A program made the position numbers and the translations under genes. Positions 2,190-27,748 of a DNA stretch of 64,000 bases are shown in pieces (the first letter of the stretch is position 1; every line of letters begins with the position of its first letter). The notes under the pieces were generated by a model. That model saw nothing but the letters and a program-made list of their open reading frames with translations. It did no database searches and was not told the DNA's origin. Source of the stretch: Candidatus Omnitrophota bacterium (GTDB lineage: Bacteria; Omnitrophota; Gorgyraeia; Zapsychrales; JANLHA01); assembly GCA_023247795.1 (NCBI GenBank), contig JAHFFT010000004.1, positions 9,739 through 73,738 on the forward strand. Direction: 5' to 3'.

Positions 2190-3929
2190 TCACCAAGATC
2201 CGCCGCCCCCGCCCCCGAATCCTCCCCCGCTAAAACCCCCGCCGACCGAAAATCCACCCCCGGAGGAGACGGTTTGCGGGGAAGAGTAAAAGCTGGACCC
2301 CATATGATCTAACGAACGATTGAGATCATGAACGAAATGATCAAAGATAAAAACCCCGGTATAATTTCCGGCAAACCACTGCGGCGACTGCGTATAGAGT
2401 CCGTCGAATTTGGTCGCCCATTTCGTGCTCATGCCCAAACAGATGGCATAAGGCAGCATCCGCTCGAAAACATTCTGCTGATCCGCCCTTTGGATCTTGT
2501 CCTTTTCAGTCCGCAGTAAAAATTCTTTGAACCCTAAAATCTTTGATAATATTTCCGTCCCCTCAACCGTCCGCTTCGGCATAATCACTCCAAACAGCAA
2601 AATGATCAAACTCGATAGCAGCAATGATCCCATCAACCAAGAATCATAAGCGCTGGAGAAGACACCCAAAAAAAATACAACACCGGCGATAGCGGTATAA
2701 AAGATGACAATGGCGGTCGGATGGTTCTCCAAATATTTTTTCGGCCGGAGTTCGTCTTTGATCCTTCCCTCGATCACGTCCACTTTTTCATAAAACCTAT
2801 TTTCCAGCTCGTACAATTTCACTTCGGAAGAAACAGGCTTGCCGCCAAAGATCGAACGGAGAATGATCCTTTCATACGGTTTTATCAACGCGTCGGCTTC
2901 AAAAGCCTTTAGCAAAATAAAGCTATAGTCTTTGCCGACAAAATTTTTGTCCTGTTGAACGATTTTCAAATAGCCGCGGATCGCTAAATCAATGATCGTG
3001 GCCGAGATATCACGTTGATCCAGCTTATAATCAATGAGCGTTCCCACTTCCGCAGGCTTGAGGTTGTCGGGCGCTTGGTATTCAACAACAATGCTCTTAT
3101 TCAAATGCGGATCTTTCCCAAAATGTCGCCAAAGATTGTACATCACGAAAAAGGACACGACAGGAATGAGCAAAGACCATGGCCCAATCGGCGGTTTAAC
3201 ATCATACGGATTATAAGAATGGTCTTCATTCGCTACCGATGATTGATCGAAATCGGAAACGGCCGGTGGTGTTAAAATCCCTTTCGGCACACCAACGACA
3301 ACTGTAAAACCTTCATAGGGCAGATAATTGTCGCCCGCGAACTCGATCAGTTGATCGTTGACGGCTTCACTTCTGGCATTGCTCGTTCTTGAACCTCGTC
3401 GACCGGTATAGGTGGCAATTTTGAGCGACTCCTTCGCTACGGGGACAGGTAAAAACAAAGAAACGCGGACCTGTTTGATGTTCACGTCCCACTGGTTACC
3501 GACCGCGTTCCAAAAAAGTTGATCCTGCTCAGGCAAAAAAAGGATGGCTCCCGTAACACGATAAGAAATGATGTAGGTCTGTCGGCCGGAAACGGTCCGA
3601 TAGGCGCTCCCGATCCTTAGCCGATGAACATAACCGTTATCTTCTTCCGTATAATCCCATGCCCTTCCGTTTTCATCCTGGATGGTGAAGTCGGTAAATC
3701 GCACGTTATAGGAATGGCCGTTTTCATTTTTAAAATCAATTGGAATATCGCGATAAATCCCATGCTTTGACTCGTAACCAAAATCAGCGTCGATTTTTTC
3801 GGTCACCAGAAAATGGCTGTCTTTCTCAAGCCTGATTTCAACACGATAATCCGCAATCTCCCACGCGTAGGCAGGGCTGAACATCGCGCAAAGAAAAATC
3901 GCCGAAAGAATCAACTGTCTCTGAAACAT
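2190..3929 (-). CDS. DUF2207-family membrane protein (579 aa).
   Basis: It has an N-terminal signal peptide, central TM helices, and a Gly-rich C-terminal tail GGGFSVGGGFSGGGFGGGGGGSW typical of DUF2207. It is adjacent to LemA, which is the conserved pairing. Confidence 0.75.
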   Translation of the reverse strand: MFQRQLILSAIFLCAMFSPAYAWEIADYRVEIRLEKDSHFLVTEKIDADFGYESKHGIYRDIPIDFKNENGHSYNVRFTDFTIQDENGRAWDYTEEDNGYVHRLRIGSAYRTVSGRQTYIISYRVTGAILFLPEQDQLFWNAVGNQWDVNIKQVRVSLFLPVPVAKESLKIATYTGRRGSRTSNARSEAVNDQLIEFAGDNYLPYEGFTVVVGVPKGILTPPAVSDFDQSSVANEDHSYNPYDVKPPIGPWSLLIPVVSFFVMYNLWRHFGKDPHLNKSIVVEYQAPDNLKPAEVGTLIDYKLDQRDISATIIDLAIRGYLKIVQQDKNFVGKDYSFILLKAFEADALIKPYERIILRSIFGGKPVSSEVKLYELENRFYEKVDVIEGRIKDELRPKKYLENHPTAIVIFYTAIAGVVFFLGVFSSAYDSWLMGSLLLSSLIILLFGVIMPKRTVEGTEILSKILGFKEFLLRTEKDKIQRADQQNVFERMLPYAICLGMSTKWATKFDGLYTQSPQWFAGNYTGVFIFDHFVHDLNRSLDHMGSSFYSSPQTVSSGGGFSVGGGFSGGGFGGGGGGSW

Positions 3930-3947: not shown

Positions 3948-4511
3948 TCAAGAATTGAATTTGACCTCTGGCACTTTTCGTTCGACTGCCAGGGCGTCCA
4001 ATTGGAAAAATTCTTTGTTTCGAAAATGAAAGGCATTGGCAATGAGCGACGATGGAAACATTTGAATCATGGTATTGAAATCACGGACCACGGCGTTATA
4101 ATAACGACGGGCGGACTGAATGGTTTCCTCAATGTCGATCAAACTGGTTTGCAATCGCATGAAATTTTCATTGGCCTTCAAGTCTGGATATTTTTCAACA
4201 ACGGCAAATAATGACTTTAACGTGTTCGTCAAAAAATTTTCGGCTTGGCCTTTTTCCGCGACTCCCGATGAGCCCATCGCTTTCGCGCGCGCCTCAATGA
4301 CCGCCTGCAGTGTTGTCCGTTCATGTTTGGCATACCCTTCCACCGTGGCCACCAGATTCGGGATCAGATCATAACGTCGTTTGATTTGAATGTCCACATC
4401 CGACCAAGCATTGTCACCCCTCACCTTCAACTGAACCAATCCATTGTAAATGCTGACACCCCACATCACAAAAATCACAACAGCACACAAAATCAAAATG
4501 CCTGTCATCAT
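3948..4511 (-). CDS. lemA: LemA family protein.
   Basis: 187 aa with an N-terminal TM anchor followed by a LemA-like fold (…RRYDLIPNLV…RRYYNAVVRDFN…). Confidence 0.8.
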   Translation of the reverse strand: MMTGILILCAVVIFVMWGVSIYNGLVQLKVRGDNAWSDVDIQIKRRYDLIPNLVATVEGYAKHERTTLQAVIEARAKAMGSSGVAEKGQAENFLTNTLKSLFAVVEKYPDLKANENFMRLQTSLIDIEETIQSARRYYNAVVRDFNTMIQMFPSSLIANAFHFRNKEFFQLDALAVERKVPEVKFNS

Positions 4512-4604
4512 CGCTTTTCTCCTATTCTAGGTTCACGTATTGTCAAAAGTTTTTGCTCTAAGACTGCTTATCTTTAGTATTTACAAACATATCCATCAAT
4601 CATG

Positions 4605-4662
4605 CTTCCCTCCCCCTTGCCCCGCCTGTGGCGGGGCTGGTGGGGAGGGCTAGGGAGGGGGG
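4605..4662. repeat. C/G-rich nested palindrome. CCCCGCC-TGT-GGCGGGG is nested inside CCCTCCCC…GGGGAGGG. It ends in a G-rich block GGTGGGGAGGGCTAGGGAGGGGGG.
   Basis: Read directly from the sequence. The G-rich block is the inverted counterpart of 4802-4827. Confidence 0.6.
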
Positions 4663-4668
4663 AAATGC

Positions 4669-4812
4669 TCAATAATCTTTTAAAACTCCATCTATATTGC
4701 CTAACACTTCATTATTCCAAAATCTCACGTCTTTATATCCACGTTCTTTAAGCCATTCATCCCTCGATGCTTTAGCTTTCCCCATCAACCCTTTACCCAA
4801 TCGCCCCCTCCC
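4669..4812 (-). pseudogene. Remnant of a DUF559 (Vsr-like endonuclease) gene. Only the C-terminal ~45 codons survive.
   Basis: The minus-strand translation …GKAKASRDEWLKERGYKDVRFWNNEVLGNIDGVLKDY* matches the conserved DUF559 C-terminus (…RDAYLKSQGFxVLRFWNxEVLxNxEGVLExI). The upstream catalytic half is missing. The frame is closed by TAG at 4813-4815. Confidence 0.55.
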
Positions 4813-4837
4813 CTAACCCCTCCCACCAAGGGAGGGG
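4802..4837. repeat. C-rich inverted repeat. Its reverse complement GGTGGGAGGGGTTAGGGGAGGGGGCG is the partner of 4637-4662. It also contains the local hairpin CCCCTCCC-ACCAA-GGGAGGGG.
   Basis: Read directly. Together with 4637-4662 it brackets the DUF559 remnant as roughly 26-bp terminal inverted repeats. Confidence 0.55.
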
Positions 4838-4913
4838 AATAATACTTCCAAAATCTTCATATCATCCTCCCTCGCCATGTGTATTTTTCATAAAACTTTT
4901 GACACTATCTAGG

Positions 4914-4931
4914 TTCAACCCCCGGGGTTGG
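4914..4931. repeat. Palindrome TTCAACCCCCGGGGTTGG immediately 3' of the rodA stop codon.
   Basis: Perfect dyad. The same motif recurs at 41686 and three times at 49521-49567. Here it would encode TNPRG* directly after the rodA stop. Confidence 0.7.
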
Positions 4932-4932
4932 T

Positions 4933-6039
4933 TTAAAAAATCGTCCGTCGTTTGCTCAGGTTTAATAAAAAACCGATCATCAGGACAAAAATGAGAAACG
5001 AGGTCCGACCGTAACTCACTAAAGGCAACGTGATTCCAACCACCGGACATAACCCTAAAACCATTCCAATGTTGATCGCCACCTGCAGGGTCAAAATACC
5101 AACGATCCCGATCGTCACCTGGGTGCCGAATTTGTCTTTGACCTGCTCGGCAATGATGAAGCCGCAGGTGATGAGCATAGCATAACACGCCAAGAGAAAA
5201 ATCGTTCCCATCAACCCCCATTCCTCTCCAATCACCGAAAAAATGAAGTCGGTATGGCGCTCCGGCAAAAAATTGAGTTGGTTCTGCGTTCCCGCCAGCC
5301 ACCCCTTACCGAACAACAACCCTGAACCTATGGCAATCTTGGATTGGATGATCGTATATCCCGCCCCCAAGGGATCGATATTGGGATTCAAAAAAACCAA
5401 AAGCCGGTCCCGCTGATACGACTTCAAAATATGCCAAGCAAAAGGAACAAGGCACAAACAAACTCCCAGAAAAAAAAGGTAATGACGATAGTGAAGGCCG
5501 CTGACAAAAAGCATAATGAGAAAAATCCCAAACATCAAAATGGCGGTCCCCAAATCCGGTTGTTTGAAGATGAGCAGCATCGGCAGCAAAGTGATCAAGA
5601 GCGGAAAAAATAAATCCCTCCATAAACGCTGCGTCAAGGTTAAAAAACTGAAAGAGATCTTTGAAATGTTCTCGCTGAAATACCGGCCCAGAGCAAAAAT
5701 CAATCCCAACTTGGCCAATTCCGACGGCTGAAAACTTAAGGGACCTAAATTGATCCATCGCTGCGCTCCCAAGGCGTGACGGCCGACGACCATGACCAAC
5801 AACAGCAAAAAGACGCATCCGCCGTAAAAAAAATAGGAAAGGTCAAAAAATTTTCGATAATCAATCTGACTCAACAACTGGATGAAAACAAGGCCGACGA
5901 TCGCAAAGACCAATTGACTCGTAAATACGGTGTCAGAAACCCGTGGGTTATGATAAGAGGCGCTATAAACCGCCAAAAGCCCCATACCAATGATCAAAAT
6001 GGTCGTGATCCAGATGAAAAAAGCCAAATGCCGGCGCAT
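4933..6039 (-). CDS. rodA: Rod shape-determining protein RodA (SEDS family).
   Basis: 368 aa with ten TM segments, and it lies downstream of PBP2 with an ATGA stop/start overlap. Confidence 0.85.
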   Translation of the reverse strand: MRRHLAFFIWITTILIIGMGLLAVYSASYHNPRVSDTVFTSQLVFAIVGLVFIQLLSQIDYRKFFDLSYFFYGGCVFLLLLVMVVGRHALGAQRWINLGPLSFQPSELAKLGLIFALGRYFSENISKISFSFLTLTQRLWRDLFFPLLITLLPMLLIFKQPDLGTAILMFGIFLIMLFVSGLHYRHYLFFLGVCLCLVPFAWHILKSYQRDRLLVFLNPNIDPLGAGYTIIQSKIAIGSGLLFGKGWLAGTQNQLNFLPERHTDFIFSVIGEEWGLMGTIFLLACYAMLITCGFIIAEQVKDKFGTQVTIGIVGILTLQVAINIGMVLGLCPVVGITLPLVSYGRTSFLIFVLMIGFLLNLSKRRTIF

Positions 6040-7754
6040 CAGATGATCTCCTCTTTACGCATCTCCTGAAGCAAATACCGCGACAACATCGCCGCGTGAT
6101 AACTGGAACCACCGTATTCCAAAAAAACACAAAACGCGATTTTTTGTTTGCCGCTCAAATCATATCCGACAAACCAGGCGTGATGTTTCCGCTGCGAATT
6201 GCTTTGCGCGGTCCCGGTCTTGCCAAAAACCTCAAAACCATCCATATTGAGTATCCCGGCGGTCCCTTCGGGATCCTGCACCACCGATCTTAAACCACTG
6301 TGGACAAGATCAAAATATTTTTTGTCGATCCTGATGGATTTGATGCTGGATAAACGAACGACCTCTTGCTGACCAATTTTTTTGATCAAATGGGGCTGCA
6401 CAACTTCTCCCGACCGAGCAATGGTTGCCATCATGCGCAGCAACTGAATCGGTGTCACCAATAAATCCCCCTGCCCAATCGAAAAATTCAGGGTGTCACC
6501 GGTGTACCAGCCTCCTTGATTTTTCGACTGCCGCAAAGCCTTGCTGGGAACCAGGCCGGCGGCCTCAAACGGCAGATCGATCTTCGTCCGTTCTCCAAAT
6601 CCAAATAAACGGGCATATTTGTTGATGATGTCCGCGTCCAACTTTCTTCCTAACGTGTAGAAATAAACATTGCAGGAATGGGCAATGGCCTGCACCAGAT
6701 TTTCCACGCCATGAACATGAGCGCAAAGGAATTTCTGTTCTCCCAGCAGATAGTAACCGGGACATTGCGTTGTTGTTTGGCTGGAAATCGTGCCCGAGTC
6801 CAATCCGGCCATGGCCATCACGGCTTTAAAAACCGAGCCCGGCGGATACTGGCCCTTAACCGCGCGATCCAACATCGGTGCCGACGAGTCCGTCAAGATG
6901 CCTGGCGCCTGACTCCGCAGCTTCTGATCGCTAAAAACATTGGGGTTATAACTTGGCGAATTGACCAATCCCAAAATATCGCCGGTATCAAGATCCATGA
7001 CAATGATCGACCCCCGCTGCTCTCCTAAAATTTTTGCCGCGATCCGCTGAATATCGCCGTCGATGGTCAATTCCAGGTCTTCTCCCTTCTGCGATTCACG
7101 GACCCCTAATAAACGCACTTGTTGGCCGTGGTTATTGACTTCGATTTGCTGGCCGCCGGCCTGCCCCTGCAAATAGCGGTCATAATACGCCTCGACCCCA
7201 TCGTATCCGACCAAACTTTCCGGATTATAACCATACTCTTTAAGCTGATCTACCTTGGAGTTATCGATTTTACCGACGTAACCAAGCACGTGCGCGCCAG
7301 CCTGCTCGAATGGATAAAAACGACGAAAGGATTCTTGAATATACAGGCCGGGGAAACGGAATCGATTTTCCTCCAACAGCATCGCCACTTTTTTATCGAC
7401 GTCGTAAACGATCACAACCGGCGCGAACGCGGCGACTTTTCGCTGAAAAAAACGCTGAAGCAAATCACGTTTTTTTTCGTTGAGGGTCTCGGCCAAAAAG
7501 GCGAATAATTCCTCACTCTCCCGGATGTCTTGCGGGACCACCGCGACATCGTACGATAAACGATTATCAACTAAAGTGTCGCCATTACGGTCGCGGATCA
7601 CCCCGCGCTGCGCTTCCAAAGGAACGACCCGGATGTGATTATTAGCACTGAGATTATGAAAATAGGCTCCCCTAATGACCTGGACATAGAACAGATCAAG
7701 CGCGATCGAAATCAACAAAAATAAAGCGATTACGCGAACAATCTTGATACGCAT
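6039..7754 (-). CDS. mrdA: Penicillin-binding protein 2 (elongasome transpeptidase).
   Basis: N-terminal TM anchor, transpeptidase motifs SVFK, SCN and KTGTA, and position in the mreBCD-mrdA-rodA cluster. Confidence 0.9.
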   Translation of the reverse strand: MRIKIVRVIALFLLISIALDLFYVQVIRGAYFHNLSANNHIRVVPLEAQRGVIRDRNGDTLVDNRLSYDVAVVPQDIRESEELFAFLAETLNEKKRDLLQRFFQRKVAAFAPVVIVYDVDKKVAMLLEENRFRFPGLYIQESFRRFYPFEQAGAHVLGYVGKIDNSKVDQLKEYGYNPESLVGYDGVEAYYDRYLQGQAGGQQIEVNNHGQQVRLLGVRESQKGEDLELTIDGDIQRIAAKILGEQRGSIIVMDLDTGDILGLVNSPSYNPNVFSDQKLRSQAPGILTDSSAPMLDRAVKGQYPPGSVFKAVMAMAGLDSGTISSQTTTQCPGYYLLGEQKFLCAHVHGVENLVQAIAHSCNVYFYTLGRKLDADIINKYARLFGFGERTKIDLPFEAAGLVPSKALRQSKNQGGWYTGDTLNFSIGQGDLLVTPIQLLRMMATIARSGEVVQPHLIKKIGQQEVVRLSSIKSIRIDKKYFDLVHSGLRSVVQDPEGTAGILNMDGFEVFGKTGTAQSNSQRKHHAWFVGYDLSGKQKIAFCVFLEYGGSSYHAAMLSRYLLQEMRKEEII

Positions 7755-24949: not shown

Positions 24950-27748
24950 TCAGCCGTCCTGAGCAAACGGCACTTGCGGATCAAGGATCTCATTCATGAT
25001 GAAATCCAAAGCGCATAGGTAATATTGATAAACTTTTTCTCTTTGTTCAAGCATTTTCGGATCTAAAAATGTTTTTACCTCCAAAGTGCACAAATTATAA
25101 AGCGCTGCGTTGACGGAGGCCTCTGGATATTGCTGCTGCAAATAATGGAAATACAACGGCAATTGGAAAGAACGGATCTGGTCCCGGATCCATTCTCGGG
25201 TGAATCCACAGCGAGAATCGATCGCGCCGGCCCGCGGCATCTGGTCCCGAGAACCGGTTTTATAATCAAGGATCAAGATTGTACCGTCGGGCATTTGATC
25301 AATCCGGTCAATGACATATTTGAATTTGATATGGCCTGCTGACAACTCGATTTTTTCCTCACAGCGATGCTCCAGAAACAGGATTTTATCGACGCGCCGT
25401 TCAGGACTGGATTGCTCATGGTCCATAAAGCGCTGCAGCCGCTCTTCCATGACCGCCTTTAACAGAAAACTGTCTGATTTCATGCTCCGGCCAAAGGTCT
25501 CGACGAATTTATGCTCAAAACTTTTCATCAAGCGCTGACGGAAAACCTCATCGATGAGTGGCTGTTTGTTCAAGAACGGCAGAAAACTCTGCTCCAAAAT
25601 CTCATGGATGAACGTGCCCACGTGTCTGGCCTCGGGCTCATCAAGGGAATCGTCCTGCTCCTCAATCCCCAAAACATAGCGCTCATAAAATTCCCAAGGA
25701 TCGTTCAGATAAGTGTTGAGACTGGAGGCAGAGTAAGACATCCTTTTTAAAAAATCGATCATCGCCGGCGTTTTTCGCATTTCCTTTTTTTGCGGCCGGC
25801 TTATGACTTCATAACCCACCGTTGCTATTTCGACCGCGTCGAGACGGTTCTGGAATTTCTGTTCTTCCCAAATCAATTCCTCAATAAAACGACTACGCTC
25901 TTTCTCTTTATTTTTCTGGTAGATCAAGTGCACATGCTTTGCCGAGGAAATGAGACGCATGAATTGATAGCGCTGGATCTCTTCTTCCAATTCAACGCGG
26001 TTGAGATCCAAACTAATCATCACGTCACGCGGGATGAGGGGCTGATAAAGTGTGAGATTCGGCAGCCGCCCTTCGTTCATGTCTAAGACAATCACATTCT
26101 CAAAATTGAGCGAACGGGTCTCAAACAACCCCAAAATCTGCAGTCCTTTCAGCGGGGAGCCTTGAAACGGGACTCGTTCACTTTCCAATTTGGTTTGAAA
26201 GACCTGAAAAATCTGTTCTGACGAGAATGGTTCATTGCGAAAGCTGGCCTGTTTCAATTCCTCAATCACATCATAGACCCGGGCGGCAATATTGAGATTG
26301 AGCGGGAAATGCTGGAGATAACTCTGTCCGACGAGGGTATCTAAAAAATTTTCTAAGCGGCTGGTGAAATCACCAAAATTCTTAATCTCGCCCCAGGCCA
26401 GAAATAAAAGTTCATGCAATTCTGCCAAAAGTTTTTCCAGATGTTCACGGTTGCTTAAGATCTGCAGACGGTCGAGCATTTCCGAGGCCGAAAGATACAG
26501 ATCATCCAGACGGAGCATATCCTCAAGATCCAAAAACAGACTACCGGAGAGCGACGACCGTTCACTACCAGTCAAAATCTCCTCGATCTTATGGACCACG
26601 ATCCGCGTTGCCGCCGCGTCACCGGTGAGTTTCAGATTCTTGATAAACGGATGTCTTAAAACCTGCAAATAATCCCGGGAATAAAATTTGCCGTTCCTTT
26701 TTGACAATTGCGCTTTGAAGATGAGTGTAAAGAGCGAGTATAGACTACTGCGCTGCAAGGGATACCCCATGGAAATATTGAAATCTTTCACCACATGACT
26801 GATCTCAGAAACCAAAGGTGTCACCAAATCCGGGGTCGGCAAAACAATGACGGTCTCCTCTGGATTCTTAATCTTTTTGAGGATCTCTCGTGCGATCCCG
26901 ACCTGCGAATGGCTGTCAAAACCTTCATAGATCTTCAGCTGAAAACCCGGCCGCTGTGGCTCATCCCCCTCGAGGATGGGGCAGGAAAAATTCTTTGCCA
27001 TCCGATCAAAGATCTGCCATTTGCGCTGATCACCTTGGAAAAACAGAACCGCCTTCTTCTGCGCTCTTAACTTCTTGATCACTTCTTCTTCACAGCGATT
27101 GAAATAAAAAAAGTTGCAGATCAGAATTTGATCAAATTCTTTGAATTCTTCCGTAAAATCACAATCTCGGCTGATCTGGGAGGCACGCAAATATTGCAGA
27201 CCACGCGAGAATTGCTTTCGCTTGAACATCTCCTGATGATACGCCTGGCGCAGAATGACAATATGCGAAAGCAGCTCATTTAAGTCCGCCGGCACTTCGT
27301 AACCGATCTGTGCGACTGATTCCACTGTCTTTAATTTTTGATCATCGATATTTTCTAGGTCGAGACTCTCGATGAAAGCCAAAATTTCTTTGGCCCAGGG
27401 TAAAAATTGGGCAAAGCGTTGACGCCCGGCAATCACCTTCGGGGTCAATTTTATCGCGAGTTGATACAACAGATAACAACTCTCCAAATCCGAAGGCACA
27501 CCGAACTTTTCCCTTTTGCGTACGATGGTGGCCATGAACTCATTGATGGAAAAAAACGTGGGCGGATAAAAACTCTTTTTCAGTCGAGTAGCAAGTTTCC
27601 GTTTTAAAAAAAGGTTTGGCCGACGGCCACCAAAGACAATGGCCAATCGATTCAACTCTCGATCCGTTGAGAGATAATGCTCATCGAGATACTCCATCAA
27701 TTGATCGAGAAAAGATTCACAAAATGAAAAGGTATGGACGTCATTCAT
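24950..27748 (-). CDS. addB: AddB-like helicase-nuclease subunit: degenerate N-terminal Walker A and a C-terminal RecB-family PD-(D/E)XK nuclease.
   Basis: About 930 aa. The C-terminus reads …YVIDRIDQMPDGTILILDYKTGS… (nuclease motif). The N-terminal VFGGRRPNLFLKR is a degenerate P-loop. ATG at 27748 overlaps the addA stop (ATGAATGA). Confidence 0.75.
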   Translation of the reverse strand: MNDVHTFSFCESFLDQLMEYLDEHYLSTDRELNRLAIVFGGRRPNLFLKRKLATRLKKSFYPPTFFSINEFMATIVRKREKFGVPSDLESCYLLYQLAIKLTPKVIAGRQRFAQFLPWAKEILAFIESLDLENIDDQKLKTVESVAQIGYEVPADLNELLSHIVILRQAYHQEMFKRKQFSRGLQYLRASQISRDCDFTEEFKEFDQILICNFFYFNRCEEEVIKKLRAQKKAVLFFQGDQRKWQIFDRMAKNFSCPILEGDEPQRPGFQLKIYEGFDSHSQVGIAREILKKIKNPEETVIVLPTPDLVTPLVSEISHVVKDFNISMGYPLQRSSLYSLFTLIFKAQLSKRNGKFYSRDYLQVLRHPFIKNLKLTGDAAATRIVVHKIEEILTGSERSSLSGSLFLDLEDMLRLDDLYLSASEMLDRLQILSNREHLEKLLAELHELLFLAWGEIKNFGDFTSRLENFLDTLVGQSYLQHFPLNLNIAARVYDVIEELKQASFRNEPFSSEQIFQVFQTKLESERVPFQGSPLKGLQILGLFETRSLNFENVIVLDMNEGRLPNLTLYQPLIPRDVMISLDLNRVELEEEIQRYQFMRLISSAKHVHLIYQKNKEKERSRFIEELIWEEQKFQNRLDAVEIATVGYEVISRPQKKEMRKTPAMIDFLKRMSYSASSLNTYLNDPWEFYERYVLGIEEQDDSLDEPEARHVGTFIHEILEQSFLPFLNKQPLIDEVFRQRLMKSFEHKFVETFGRSMKSDSFLLKAVMEERLQRFMDHEQSSPERRVDKILFLEHRCEEKIELSAGHIKFKYVIDRIDQMPDGTILILDYKTGSRDQMPRAGAIDSRCGFTREWIRDQIRSFQLPLYFHYLQQQYPEASVNAALYNLCTLEVKTFLDPKMLEQREKVYQYYLCALDFIMNEILDPQVPFAQDG

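Follow-up and report, generated by a model that had tools for sequence, protein, structure and literature searches.

In a 64,000-nucleotide stretch of DNA from Candidatus Omnitrophota (the window, whose coordinates are used below unless a locus is named), the spacer between rodA and lemA of a cell-shape operon holds the remains of a mobile element. Positions 4536-4909 are best explained as a dead, non-autonomous, IS6-like miniature transposable element with inverted repeats (MITE) or mobile insertion cassette with a DUF559 cargo gene, lying on the minus strand in the sense of rodA and lemA, and this reading is given a probability of roughly 0.85. The locus would be a mobile-element relic and not a regulatory device, which would account for its unusually long, GC-spiked spacer. 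The initial annotation had suggested a decayed DUF559-carrying insertion bounded by G-rich terminal inverted repeats. A genuine insertion in the rodA-lemA spacer was confirmed, but its extent was not: the real element spans 4536-4909, and the true termini and the target duplication lie approximately 70-100 bp farther out on each side than the G-rich repeats.

The proposed history begins with entry of the element into a rodA-lemA spacer that would originally have been about 39 nt long. Insertion would have duplicated 8 bp (TGAACCTA), with the duplicate ending 4 nt 5' of the lemA Shine-Dalgarno (SD) sequence. A DDE transposase of the kind encoded by locus L066 (L numbers denote loci and P numbers database proteins) would have acted in trans on the 18-nt terminal repeats (GGTAGTGTCAAAAGTTTT). 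The G-rich repeats form an inner layer of approximately 36 nt around the DUF559 open reading frame (ORF) in intact copies, with the upstream arm serving as the SD of the nuclease gene and both arms able to form a hairpin and carrying a G-quadruplex motif. A later 183-nt in-frame deletion took the catalytic half, so that no nuclease can be made. The remaining, strongly structured 374-nt insert is probably co-transcribed between rodA and lemA; the spacer has no promoter-like site (both hits lie inside lemA) and no terminator-like site occurs within 4300-5200.

Element ends and target duplication

The rodA-lemA spacer is 421 nt long (4512-4932) and contains the whole feature. A repeat scan revealed two structures that were absent from the initial annotation. 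The first is an outer inverted repeat of 16 nt, TATTGTCAAAAGTTTT at 4538-4553 and AAAACTTTTGACACTA at 4892-4907, which agrees at 15 of 16 positions, and the second is a perfect direct repeat (4526-4535 and 4908-4917) that directly flanks it. Comparison with other copies places the ends of the element at 4536 and 4909, which gives a length of 374 bp, and extends the terminal inverted repeats to 18 nt with the core TGTCAAAAGTTTT. An 8-bp target duplication abuts both ends. When the element and one duplicate are removed, a rodA-lemA spacer of 39 nt remains, running from the stop codon through 15 nt, TGAACCTA, GAAT, AGGAG and 7 nt to the ATG, and this is an ordinary operon junction.

The left end is called the 'ATGAA' end and lies downstream of the transposase gene in autonomous relatives. 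It matched an nhmmer profile of 115 family left ends at E=3.6e-8, and the lemA-side end matched at E=0.05. The 'ATGAA' terminus recurs in loci L008-L048 and L049-L167. The window copy shows several properties of a MITE: terminal repeats, a flanking duplication, a length of 374 bp and no transposase gene in the window, where tblastn queries with the L066 transposase and IS1 InsA/InsB gave no hit. Profile and motif scans found no further termini elsewhere in the 64-kb window, so the element is a single copy there. The features, from the rodA side to the lemA side, are as follows.

4910-4917, minus strand: target duplication on the rodA side (TGAACCTA), 8/8 match to 4528-4535
4892-4909, minus strand: outer terminal inverted repeat, 'ATGAA' end (GATAGTGTCAAAAGTTTT), 15/16 with 4538-4553; nhmmer E=3.6e-8
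4813-4871, minus strand: subterminal leader with an SD-like GGGAGG (4866-4871) and, from translation, a short ORF MKILEVLFPSLGGRG ending in a stop (4813-4860)
4805-4839, minus strand: upstream arm of the inner G-rich repeat, made up of the hairpin CCCCTCCC/GGGAGGGG and GGGGAGGGGG; 33/35 against the family arm TTCCCCTCCCCTTGTGGGAGGGGTTAGGGGAGGGG
4669-4800, minus strand: DUF559 remnant ORF of 43 codons with a TTG start and its stop at 4669-4671; Pfam part 4675-4773
4761-4762, minus strand: approximate junction of the 183-nt in-frame deletion, a gap at about columns 173-355 against L028 and L037
4606-4663, minus strand: downstream arm of the inner repeat (CCCCCCTCCCTAGCCCTCCCC...GGGGGAGGG); the same arm follows the DUF559 stop in L028, L037, L169 and L171
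4554-4605, minus strand: subterminal right arm (...AAAGATAAGCAGTCTTAGAGC...), which aligns with its counterparts in L028 and L037; the right-arm sequences of L041 and L169 were inspected too
4536-4553, minus strand: outer terminal inverted repeat on the lemA side (AAAACTTTTGACAATACG), from the repeat scan; nhmmer E=0.05
4528-4535, minus strand: target duplication on the lemA side (TGAACCTA), 8/8
4509-4523, minus strand: host sequence with the lemA SD AGGAG (4519-4523), which starts 4 nt past the duplication, and the lemA start codon (4509-4511)

Apart from the element itself, the window holds a single near-match to the terminal-repeat core, at 26423-26435 (TGCCAAAAGTTTT, 1 mismatch). It has no partner and no family features, and it was judged a chance match and rejected as a second family end.

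The DUF559 remnant and its intact relatives

The minus-strand ORF that had been noted between rodA and lemA is present, with 38 codons counted from an internal ATG and 43 from a TTG (4669-4800). Its frame extends upstream to a TAG, as had been described, at 4813-4815. The proposed identity with the C-terminus of DUF559 is supported by Pfam PF04480 (E=2e-7; 31.3 bits against a cutoff of 20.6), to which the remnant peptide ...ASRDEWLKERGYKDVRFWNNEVLGNIDGVLKDY gives the match. Only positions 71-103 of the 109 in PF04480 are covered. Alignment with relatives showed that the remnant lacks the (V/I)E(V/L)DGGQH block together with all sequence N-terminal to it, in agreement with the earlier claim that the catalytic N-terminal half is absent. 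The window copy does not encode a complete DUF559 domain with its catalytic core (...IVDF...(V/I)E(V/L)DGGQH).

L028 and L037 are full-length elements with an intact DUF559 ORF. The window spacer aligned with them from terminus to terminus at a mean column identity of 72%, with one gap of 183 columns inside the DUF559 gene. This end-to-end alignment with a single gap in the gene indicates that the window copy is an internal-deletion derivative. The deletion is in frame and fuses the native ribosome-binding region and TTG start to the last approximately 33 residues. A chance origin, in which low-complexity G/C runs happen to surround a spurious short ORF, might be argued from the shortness of the ORF and from a Pfam match of only 33 residues; it is practically negligible, since the Pfam score exceeds the curated cutoff, the 19-nt motif has an expectation of 0.04 by chance, and the alignment with intact copies runs from end to end.

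Other intact copies with both outer ends are L168 and L169, which come from metagenome-assembled genomes (MAGs) of Omnitrophota, and the duplication in L169 is CAAGAATA(A). An intact passenger gene between IS-type ends is therefore found in L028, L037, L168 and L169, whereas the passenger in the window copy is truncated. The suggestion of a MITE-like relic with intact relatives thus holds, since many copies occur in other genomes and metagenomes. The intact DUF559 protein of L028 matches PDB 3HRL at E=2e-21. The window copy itself most likely does nothing as a gene, judging from what remains of its reading frame.

An equivalent of the short leader ORF, MK(N/D)SPPLVGGVRGG..., is found in L028, L037 and L014. 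The leader of the window copy holds a 13-nt insertion at 4843-4855 (minus strand; TTTGGAAGTATTA) relative to L028 and L037, just past the start of the short ORF, which shifts the frame of the ORF. The short leader ORF of the window runs into the G-rich arm.

A phmmer search with the 47-aa fragment found 224 relatives at E<=1e-3. The best hit, P0121, was rejected as a DUF559 relative: it is an 830-aa TPR-repeat protein with eight matched stretches (GEWDKAIGYYEQSL...), and the match is repeat-driven and spurious. Many database DUF559 entries (P0122-P0131, P0134, P0197, P0265) are short fragments or stop-region readthroughs with tails of the PLPNPLP..GEG type. These tails are translations of the flanking C/G-rich repeat and hence probably annotation artefacts, and the repeat would account for many of the DUF559 fragment entries as well. 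Searches of viral contigs found two DUF559 loci and one family member, and no match was found in the plasmid collection. Among the annotated or read neighbours of the DUF559 copies (window, L168-L171), no cytosine methyltransferase, intron or intein was present, and no systematic search was made for them.

Inner G-rich repeats

The G-rich inverted repeat had been placed at 4637-4662 and 4802-4827, and the repeat scan recovered it at 4638-4662 and 4804-4828, as 25 nt with 80% complementarity, 141 nt apart. The arms are embedded in local C/G hairpins, as had been observed: CCCCTCCC/GGGAGGGG at 4817-4837 and CCCCGCC-TGT-GGCGGGG at 4620-4636. The latter is an extra small GC hairpin that the downstream arm of the window has gained in its loop. 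All seven window occurrences of four 8-mers of the GGGAGGGG type (GGGAGGGG, GGGGAGGG and their complements) lie within 4608-4837. The window has three canonical G-quadruplex motifs, and two of them are the G-rich arms (4804-4824, and 4633-4655 on the plus strand), with GGGAGGGGTTAGGGGAGGGGG as a candidate quadruplex-forming sequence.

In intact copies, an arm of approximately 36 nt (TTCCCCTCCCCTTGTGGGAGGGGTTAGGGGAGGGG) stands immediately 5' of the DUF559 start codon and supplies its SD, and the inverted partner (CCCCCTCCCTAACCCTCCCCACAAGGGGGAGGGAAT) lies past the end of the ORF. The start codon is a few nucleotides past the upstream arm in L014 and L028. Judged by these comparisons, the G-rich arms are an internal module bracketing the DUF559 ORF and not the termini of the element. 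If they were instead the terminal repeats of the inserted unit, that unit would span approximately 4605-4837. The arms are real inverted repeats, and DUF559 with arms and without the outer TGTCAAAAGTTTT ends is seen in the Chlamydiae MAG L170 and, on the visible downstream side, in the Doudnabacteria MAG L171, whose upstream side is too near the contig start to judge. In the window, however, no target duplication stands beside the arms, whereas a perfect 8-bp duplication flanks the outer repeats. Homology with other copies also continues for 70-100 nt past each arm to the outer termini, and the DUF559 ORF has its ribosome-binding region in the upstream arm. It is quite improbable that the arms are the ends of the insertion. 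The idea of a DUF559 unit bounded by G-rich repeats has some merit one level down, not for the insertion event in the window.

At that lower level, the nuclease gene and its two hairpin repeats may be a selfish module, in which the nuclease would recognise or cut its own hairpin or G-quadruplex repeats (compare RAYT/REP) and which would have invaded an IS6-like MITE before spreading. This possibility competes only with the view of DUF559 as passive cargo. It is suggested by the occurrence of the module both with and without the outer ends and by arms that are better conserved than the gene: the left arm of L170 agrees with L028 at 35 of 35 positions and its ORF core at 70%, and the corresponding values for the right arm and ORF of L171 are 35/36 and 66%. 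Deletions that start at the G-rich arm have arisen independently in L021, L117 and P0122, from which the repeat appears to be deletion-prone. The many DUF559 database proteins that are fragments or PLPNPLP..GEG readthroughs point in the same direction. Unrelated high-GC DUF559 genes in L005 and L006 are likewise flanked on both sides by hairpin repeats, CCCTCTCC...GGAGAGGG, of a different pyrimidine/purine-rich sequence. On the other hand, neither an insertion footprint nor an empty site nor scattered solo G-rich hairpins came to light, and there are none of these hairpins elsewhere in the 64-kb window. Conservation of the arms could also stem from their role as ribosome-binding site and RNA stem. 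Transposition or homing has not been demonstrated for DUF559, and the sole functional report found describes a Vsr-like repair nuclease (PMC12907096). The selfish module can be entertained only tentatively.

The repeats around the high-GC DUF559 genes are long palindromes on IMG/VR contigs (GACCCTCACCCC..CCCTCTCCCGCAAGCGGGAGAGGG; CCCCTCTCCTGCTGCGACTAGGCGGC...), located at L005:1140-1250 and 1625-1740 and at L006:1-100 and 510-690. In addition, a different small element, with ends of approximately GAGACTGGGTCA ... TGGCACAGTCTC / CTGGGTCA..., occupies the loop of the upstream G-rich hairpin (CCCCTCCCCTTG^...GGGAGGGG) at L023:10936-11060 and L045:575-770. These two loop insertions come from different metagenomes, which suggests that another element family targets the G-rich hairpin.

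The strong RNA structure that had been supposed between rodA and lemA is predicted. The spacer RNA folds at -138 kcal/mol, compared with -110.7 +/- 5.1 kcal/mol for shuffled sequences (z = -5.4), into a long G:C-rich stem between the arms and a stem between the outer repeats, and the lemA SD is unpaired at minimum energy. Such a fold, together with co-oriented flanking genes and no predicted terminator, would also be compatible with a cis-acting regulatory RNA native to the rodA-lemA operon, for example an attenuator, a processing site or a riboswitch. None of the Rfam 15 covariance models reached its gathering score (best 19-22 bits against 71-93). Moreover, the same sequence stands 5' of unrelated genes in other organisms, the block contains a fragment of a protein gene and has a target duplication on its flanks, and LemA relatives lack it. 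A native regulatory origin is very improbable, and a mobile-element insertion remains the preferred explanation.

The element family and its transposase

The family was traced by exact matches in sequence collections, so that the counts are lower bounds and biased to conserved left ends, and the taxonomy of MAGs is given as deposited. A metagenome scan with the outer repeat and the first C-run (TGTCAAAAGTTTTN{40,70}CCCCTCCC) gave 42 loci, of which approximately 20 are clear relatives. In the metagenome Ga0265296 there are 13 or more near-identical left ends, most of them at the edges of contigs, as is expected where a repeat breaks assemblies. A scan of one genome per species with the 19-mer TGTCAAAAGTTTTATGAAR found at least 119 stretches, with several copies per MAG. 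Among the matches listed, the record titles carry at least 15 phylum-level labels, including Nitrospirota, Omnitrophota, Deltaproteobacteria/Desulfobacterota, Acidobacteriota, Clostridia, PVC groups, Calditrichota, Cytophagia, Spirochaetota, Elusimicrobiota, Actinomycetota and Nitrospinae. Matches are present on megabase-scale contigs, in single-cell genomes and in the isolate Thermodesulfovibrio sp. N1, which indicates that binning errors do not account for the spread of the family. Three loci, L083 and L084 (Pedobacter) and L149 (uncultured Bacilli MAG), were judged to match by chance within coding sequence and were excluded.

Across 115 copies the left end has the consensus GGTAgTGTCAAAAGTTTTATGAAAAA, and the consensus of the 18-nt terminal repeat is GGTAGTGTCAAAAGTTTT. 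Complete copies measure from 92 to approximately 620 bp between the terminal-repeat cores. The interiors of 98 scorable copies comprise 27 C/G-rich blocks, 16 hairpins of the type CCACAGAG...CTCTGTGG and 55 others, and an all-against-all blastn found no long sequence common to the regions 3' of the left ends. Flanking octamers of 26 complete copies included 7 perfect 8-bp duplications and 12 agreeing at 6 or more of 8 positions, for which the chance is approximately 0.011 per copy. Perfect 8-bp duplications are found in L011, L050, L153, L158 and L161, and likewise in L133. The Deltaproteobacteria MAG GL140_5_metabat_391 (L051, L091, L095, L110, L122, L130, L131, L144, L154) has at least 10 identical left ends, each reaching a contig end approximately 134 nt into the element. 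This common stopping point probably reflects a longer multi-copy element with an unassembled interior.

Inspection of ORFs and tblastn brought autonomous copies to light. One of them, L066:200-1999, is 1.8 kb long, ends in perfect 18-bp terminal repeats with the family sequence and has a perfect 8-bp duplication, AATAGTAT. Its 278-aa protein matches Pfam DDE_Tnp_IS240 above cutoff (E=1.4e-11). L112 (51% identity), L070 and L094 have homologous transposase genes next to the same terminus, and L089 has a decayed one.

According to PMC7986276, the hallmarks of IS6 are target repeats of 8 bp and terminal repeats of 15-20 bp that carry a GG tip and the motifs cTGTt and caaa; two MITEs of the family are in ISfinder. 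The consensus of the present family (GGTAgTGTCAAAAGTTTT) has the GG tip and the cTGTt and caaa motifs. Because the consensus fits these hallmarks and the transposase matches DDE_Tnp_IS240, the outer element is called IS6-like; as far as the profile scores reach, the term denotes a distant relative and not a certified member of the IS6 family. An IS1 origin of the ends was considered and rejected: the IS1A end agrees at only 15 of 24 nt, no InsA/InsB homologue occurs in the loci examined, and an IS6-like transposase was found between the same ends.

Position relative to Shine-Dalgarno sequences

In complete copies, the 8-bp duplication comes after the right end, the one opposite 'ATGAA', and beyond it lie approximately 4 nt, an SD and a host gene's start codon in the same orientation. 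The strict criteria required an SD-like motif, a start codon 12-40 nt past the end and 60 codons or more in the ORF. They were satisfied by 19 of 27 complete right ends, compared with 0 of 139 outward left-end flanks (Fisher p=5e-19). The start codon lay 17-24 nt past the element end in 19/27, and in 17 of these 19 it lay at 20-24 nt. The target profile has GG at +13/+14 from the start of the duplication and an A-rich run before it, with no conserved position upstream. Family elements are associated with SD sequences. The downstream genes are unrelated: LemA in the window, and genes with distinct N-terminal sequences in L028, L037 and L045, which were compared by N-terminal sequence and not by Pfam. 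L066 and L089, the autonomous and decayed autonomous elements in which the relevant end is visible, both follow the same arrangement, and the window copy fits it exactly.

The position near the SD would reflect target choice and not selection after insertion. If so, a fixed distance and orientation to ribosome-binding sites across phyla would be an unusual choice of target and a recurrent means of rewiring gene 5' ends, and a simple DDE element would be integrating at gene starts in a site- and orientation-specific manner. The combined proposition is bolder: an IS6-like cross-phylum subgroup would target translation-initiation regions with the same end toward the gene, and DUF559 with its G-quadruplex-prone hairpin repeats would be a selfish module riding on these elements. 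It falls somewhat short of an even chance.

At L082:2812-3275, two tandem elements share three copies of the target (G/A)TTAAATT, as expected if one SD-defined site had been used repeatedly. Comparable nested or tandem left ends are found at L046:1-330 and L110:1-140. The terminal repeat also contains an outward TTGACA approximately 17 nt from the host SD (window 4519-4546; L158:5634-5670), which is the classical -35/-10 spacing. An outward hybrid promoter was rejected here, since the site 17 nt 3' of the TTGACA is the SD AGGAGG and not a -10 box.

Several points weigh against the identification of the window copy as an IS6-like insertion. An empty rodA-lemA site was not found, and the closest LemA relatives (80-73% identity) carry different upstream genes. 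The window ends keep the TGT and CAAAA motifs, but their tips are GA... and CG..., unlike the GG tips of the family and of the IS6 hallmark. Among NCBIfam models, IS6 family transposase fits the L066 protein best, but it scores 67 bits, below its cutoff of 125. Copy number and the presence of a transposase were assessed within the 64-kb window of the source genome only. IS6 elements are thought to move via cointegrates, and the route by which a short MITE would reach simple insertions is not established here. We also know of no mechanism by which an SD could be read in target DNA.

Relation to known mobile elements and nucleases

Taken alone, the window feature is an ordinary dead relic, and the known kinds nearest to its outer element are IS6-family MITEs and mobile insertion cassettes. 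The family resembles IS6/IS26 in the 8-bp duplication, the short conserved repeats with a GG tip and TGT/CAAA motifs in their consensus, the DDE_Tnp_IS240 transposase of the autonomous relative and the MITEs on record (PMC7986276), and the tandem copies that share a target recall IS26 insertion beside an existing copy. In contrast, the L066-type transposase is distant, the autonomous element is 1.8 kb long compared with approximately 0.8 kb for most of the IS6 family, and many copies carry variable central hairpins or DUF559 cargo. The elements here also lie at a fixed distance 5' of the SD in one orientation, a preference that a limited term search did not find in PMC7986276.

Mobile insertion cassettes, such as MIC231 of Bacillus cereus, consist of IS-type repeats and a duplication around a passenger, encode no transposase and are moved in trans. 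The present elements share the terminal repeats, the duplication, the passenger gene and the lack of a transposase. They differ in the IS family and in the passenger, which is a small nuclease with its own inverted repeat and, in the window, is truncated. The Chunjie MITE of Geobacter uraniireducens is reportedly inserted between operon genes without destroying the operon, and the likeness, drawn from its description only, is that of a bacterial MITE between operon genes. We know of no SD-relative position rule reported for Chunjie.

RAYTs are HUH/Y1 enzymes, and REPtrons combine RAYT genes with REP hairpins. The present module is similar in anatomy only, in that a small nuclease-type gene is enclosed by GC-rich inverted hairpin repeats with a higher degree of conservation than its own. 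DUF559 has a PD-(D/E)XK fold, the window has no other G-rich hairpins, and mobility of the repeats is not shown; an HUH/Y1 transposase with dispersed REPs is not what was found. The cargo belongs with Vsr/DUF559 nucleases (PDB 3HRL, E. coli Vsr, Caulobacter VsrA in PMC12907096, I-Bth0305I), as the window fragment is PF04480 and its L028 relative matches 3HRL, with the difference that the window copy lacks the catalytic half. PMC3424549 groups Vsr/DUF559 nucleases with the homing endonuclease I-Bth0305I and lists 'No HGT observed' (horizontal gene transfer) for the clade, whereas the gene here rides on a transposable element.

In the literature searched, the terminal-repeat string occurred in no relevant context, and no DUF559 on mobile elements or with flanking repeats and no MITEs placed relative to SD sequences were found. 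The large MITE census PMC11602168 returned no mention of start codons, ribosomes or names beginning with Nitrospir- or Omnitroph- in a limited term search. The SD-proximal, orientation-specific placement of the family and the constrained module of DUF559 and G-rich repeats appear to be undescribed in the searchable literature. DUF559 with conserved G-rich hairpin repeats offers a testable lead for a huge uncharacterised nuclease family, and if the module were selfish it would provide the first functional context for that family.

Gene neighbourhood and assembly breaks

The genes around the insertion are arranged on the minus strand in the order PBP2 (6039-7754), RodA (4933-6039), the spacer (4512-4932), LemA (3948-4511) and a DUF2207 protein (2190-3929). 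RodA matches Pfam FTSW_RODA_SPOVE at E=2e-97 and LemA its Pfam family at E=6e-59. The exact RodA protein is without a database record. The nearest named LemA relatives are proteins of Omnitrophota MAGs, and the source of the window is Candidatus Omnitrophota.

The sole other public contig with the LemA gene of the window is a Logan contig of SRR14366766 (L001:1-25 corresponds to window 4602-4626). It stops within the downstream G-rich arm, in the small GC hairpin there, which indicates that assemblies break at the element; the element would explain assembly breaks at such sites. The C-terminus of the DUF2207 protein is glycine-rich (GGGFSVGGGFSGGGFGGGGGGSW; window 2190-2260, minus strand), and its coding DNA forms the third G-quadruplex motif of the window (2206-2240) together with a cluster of C-runs.

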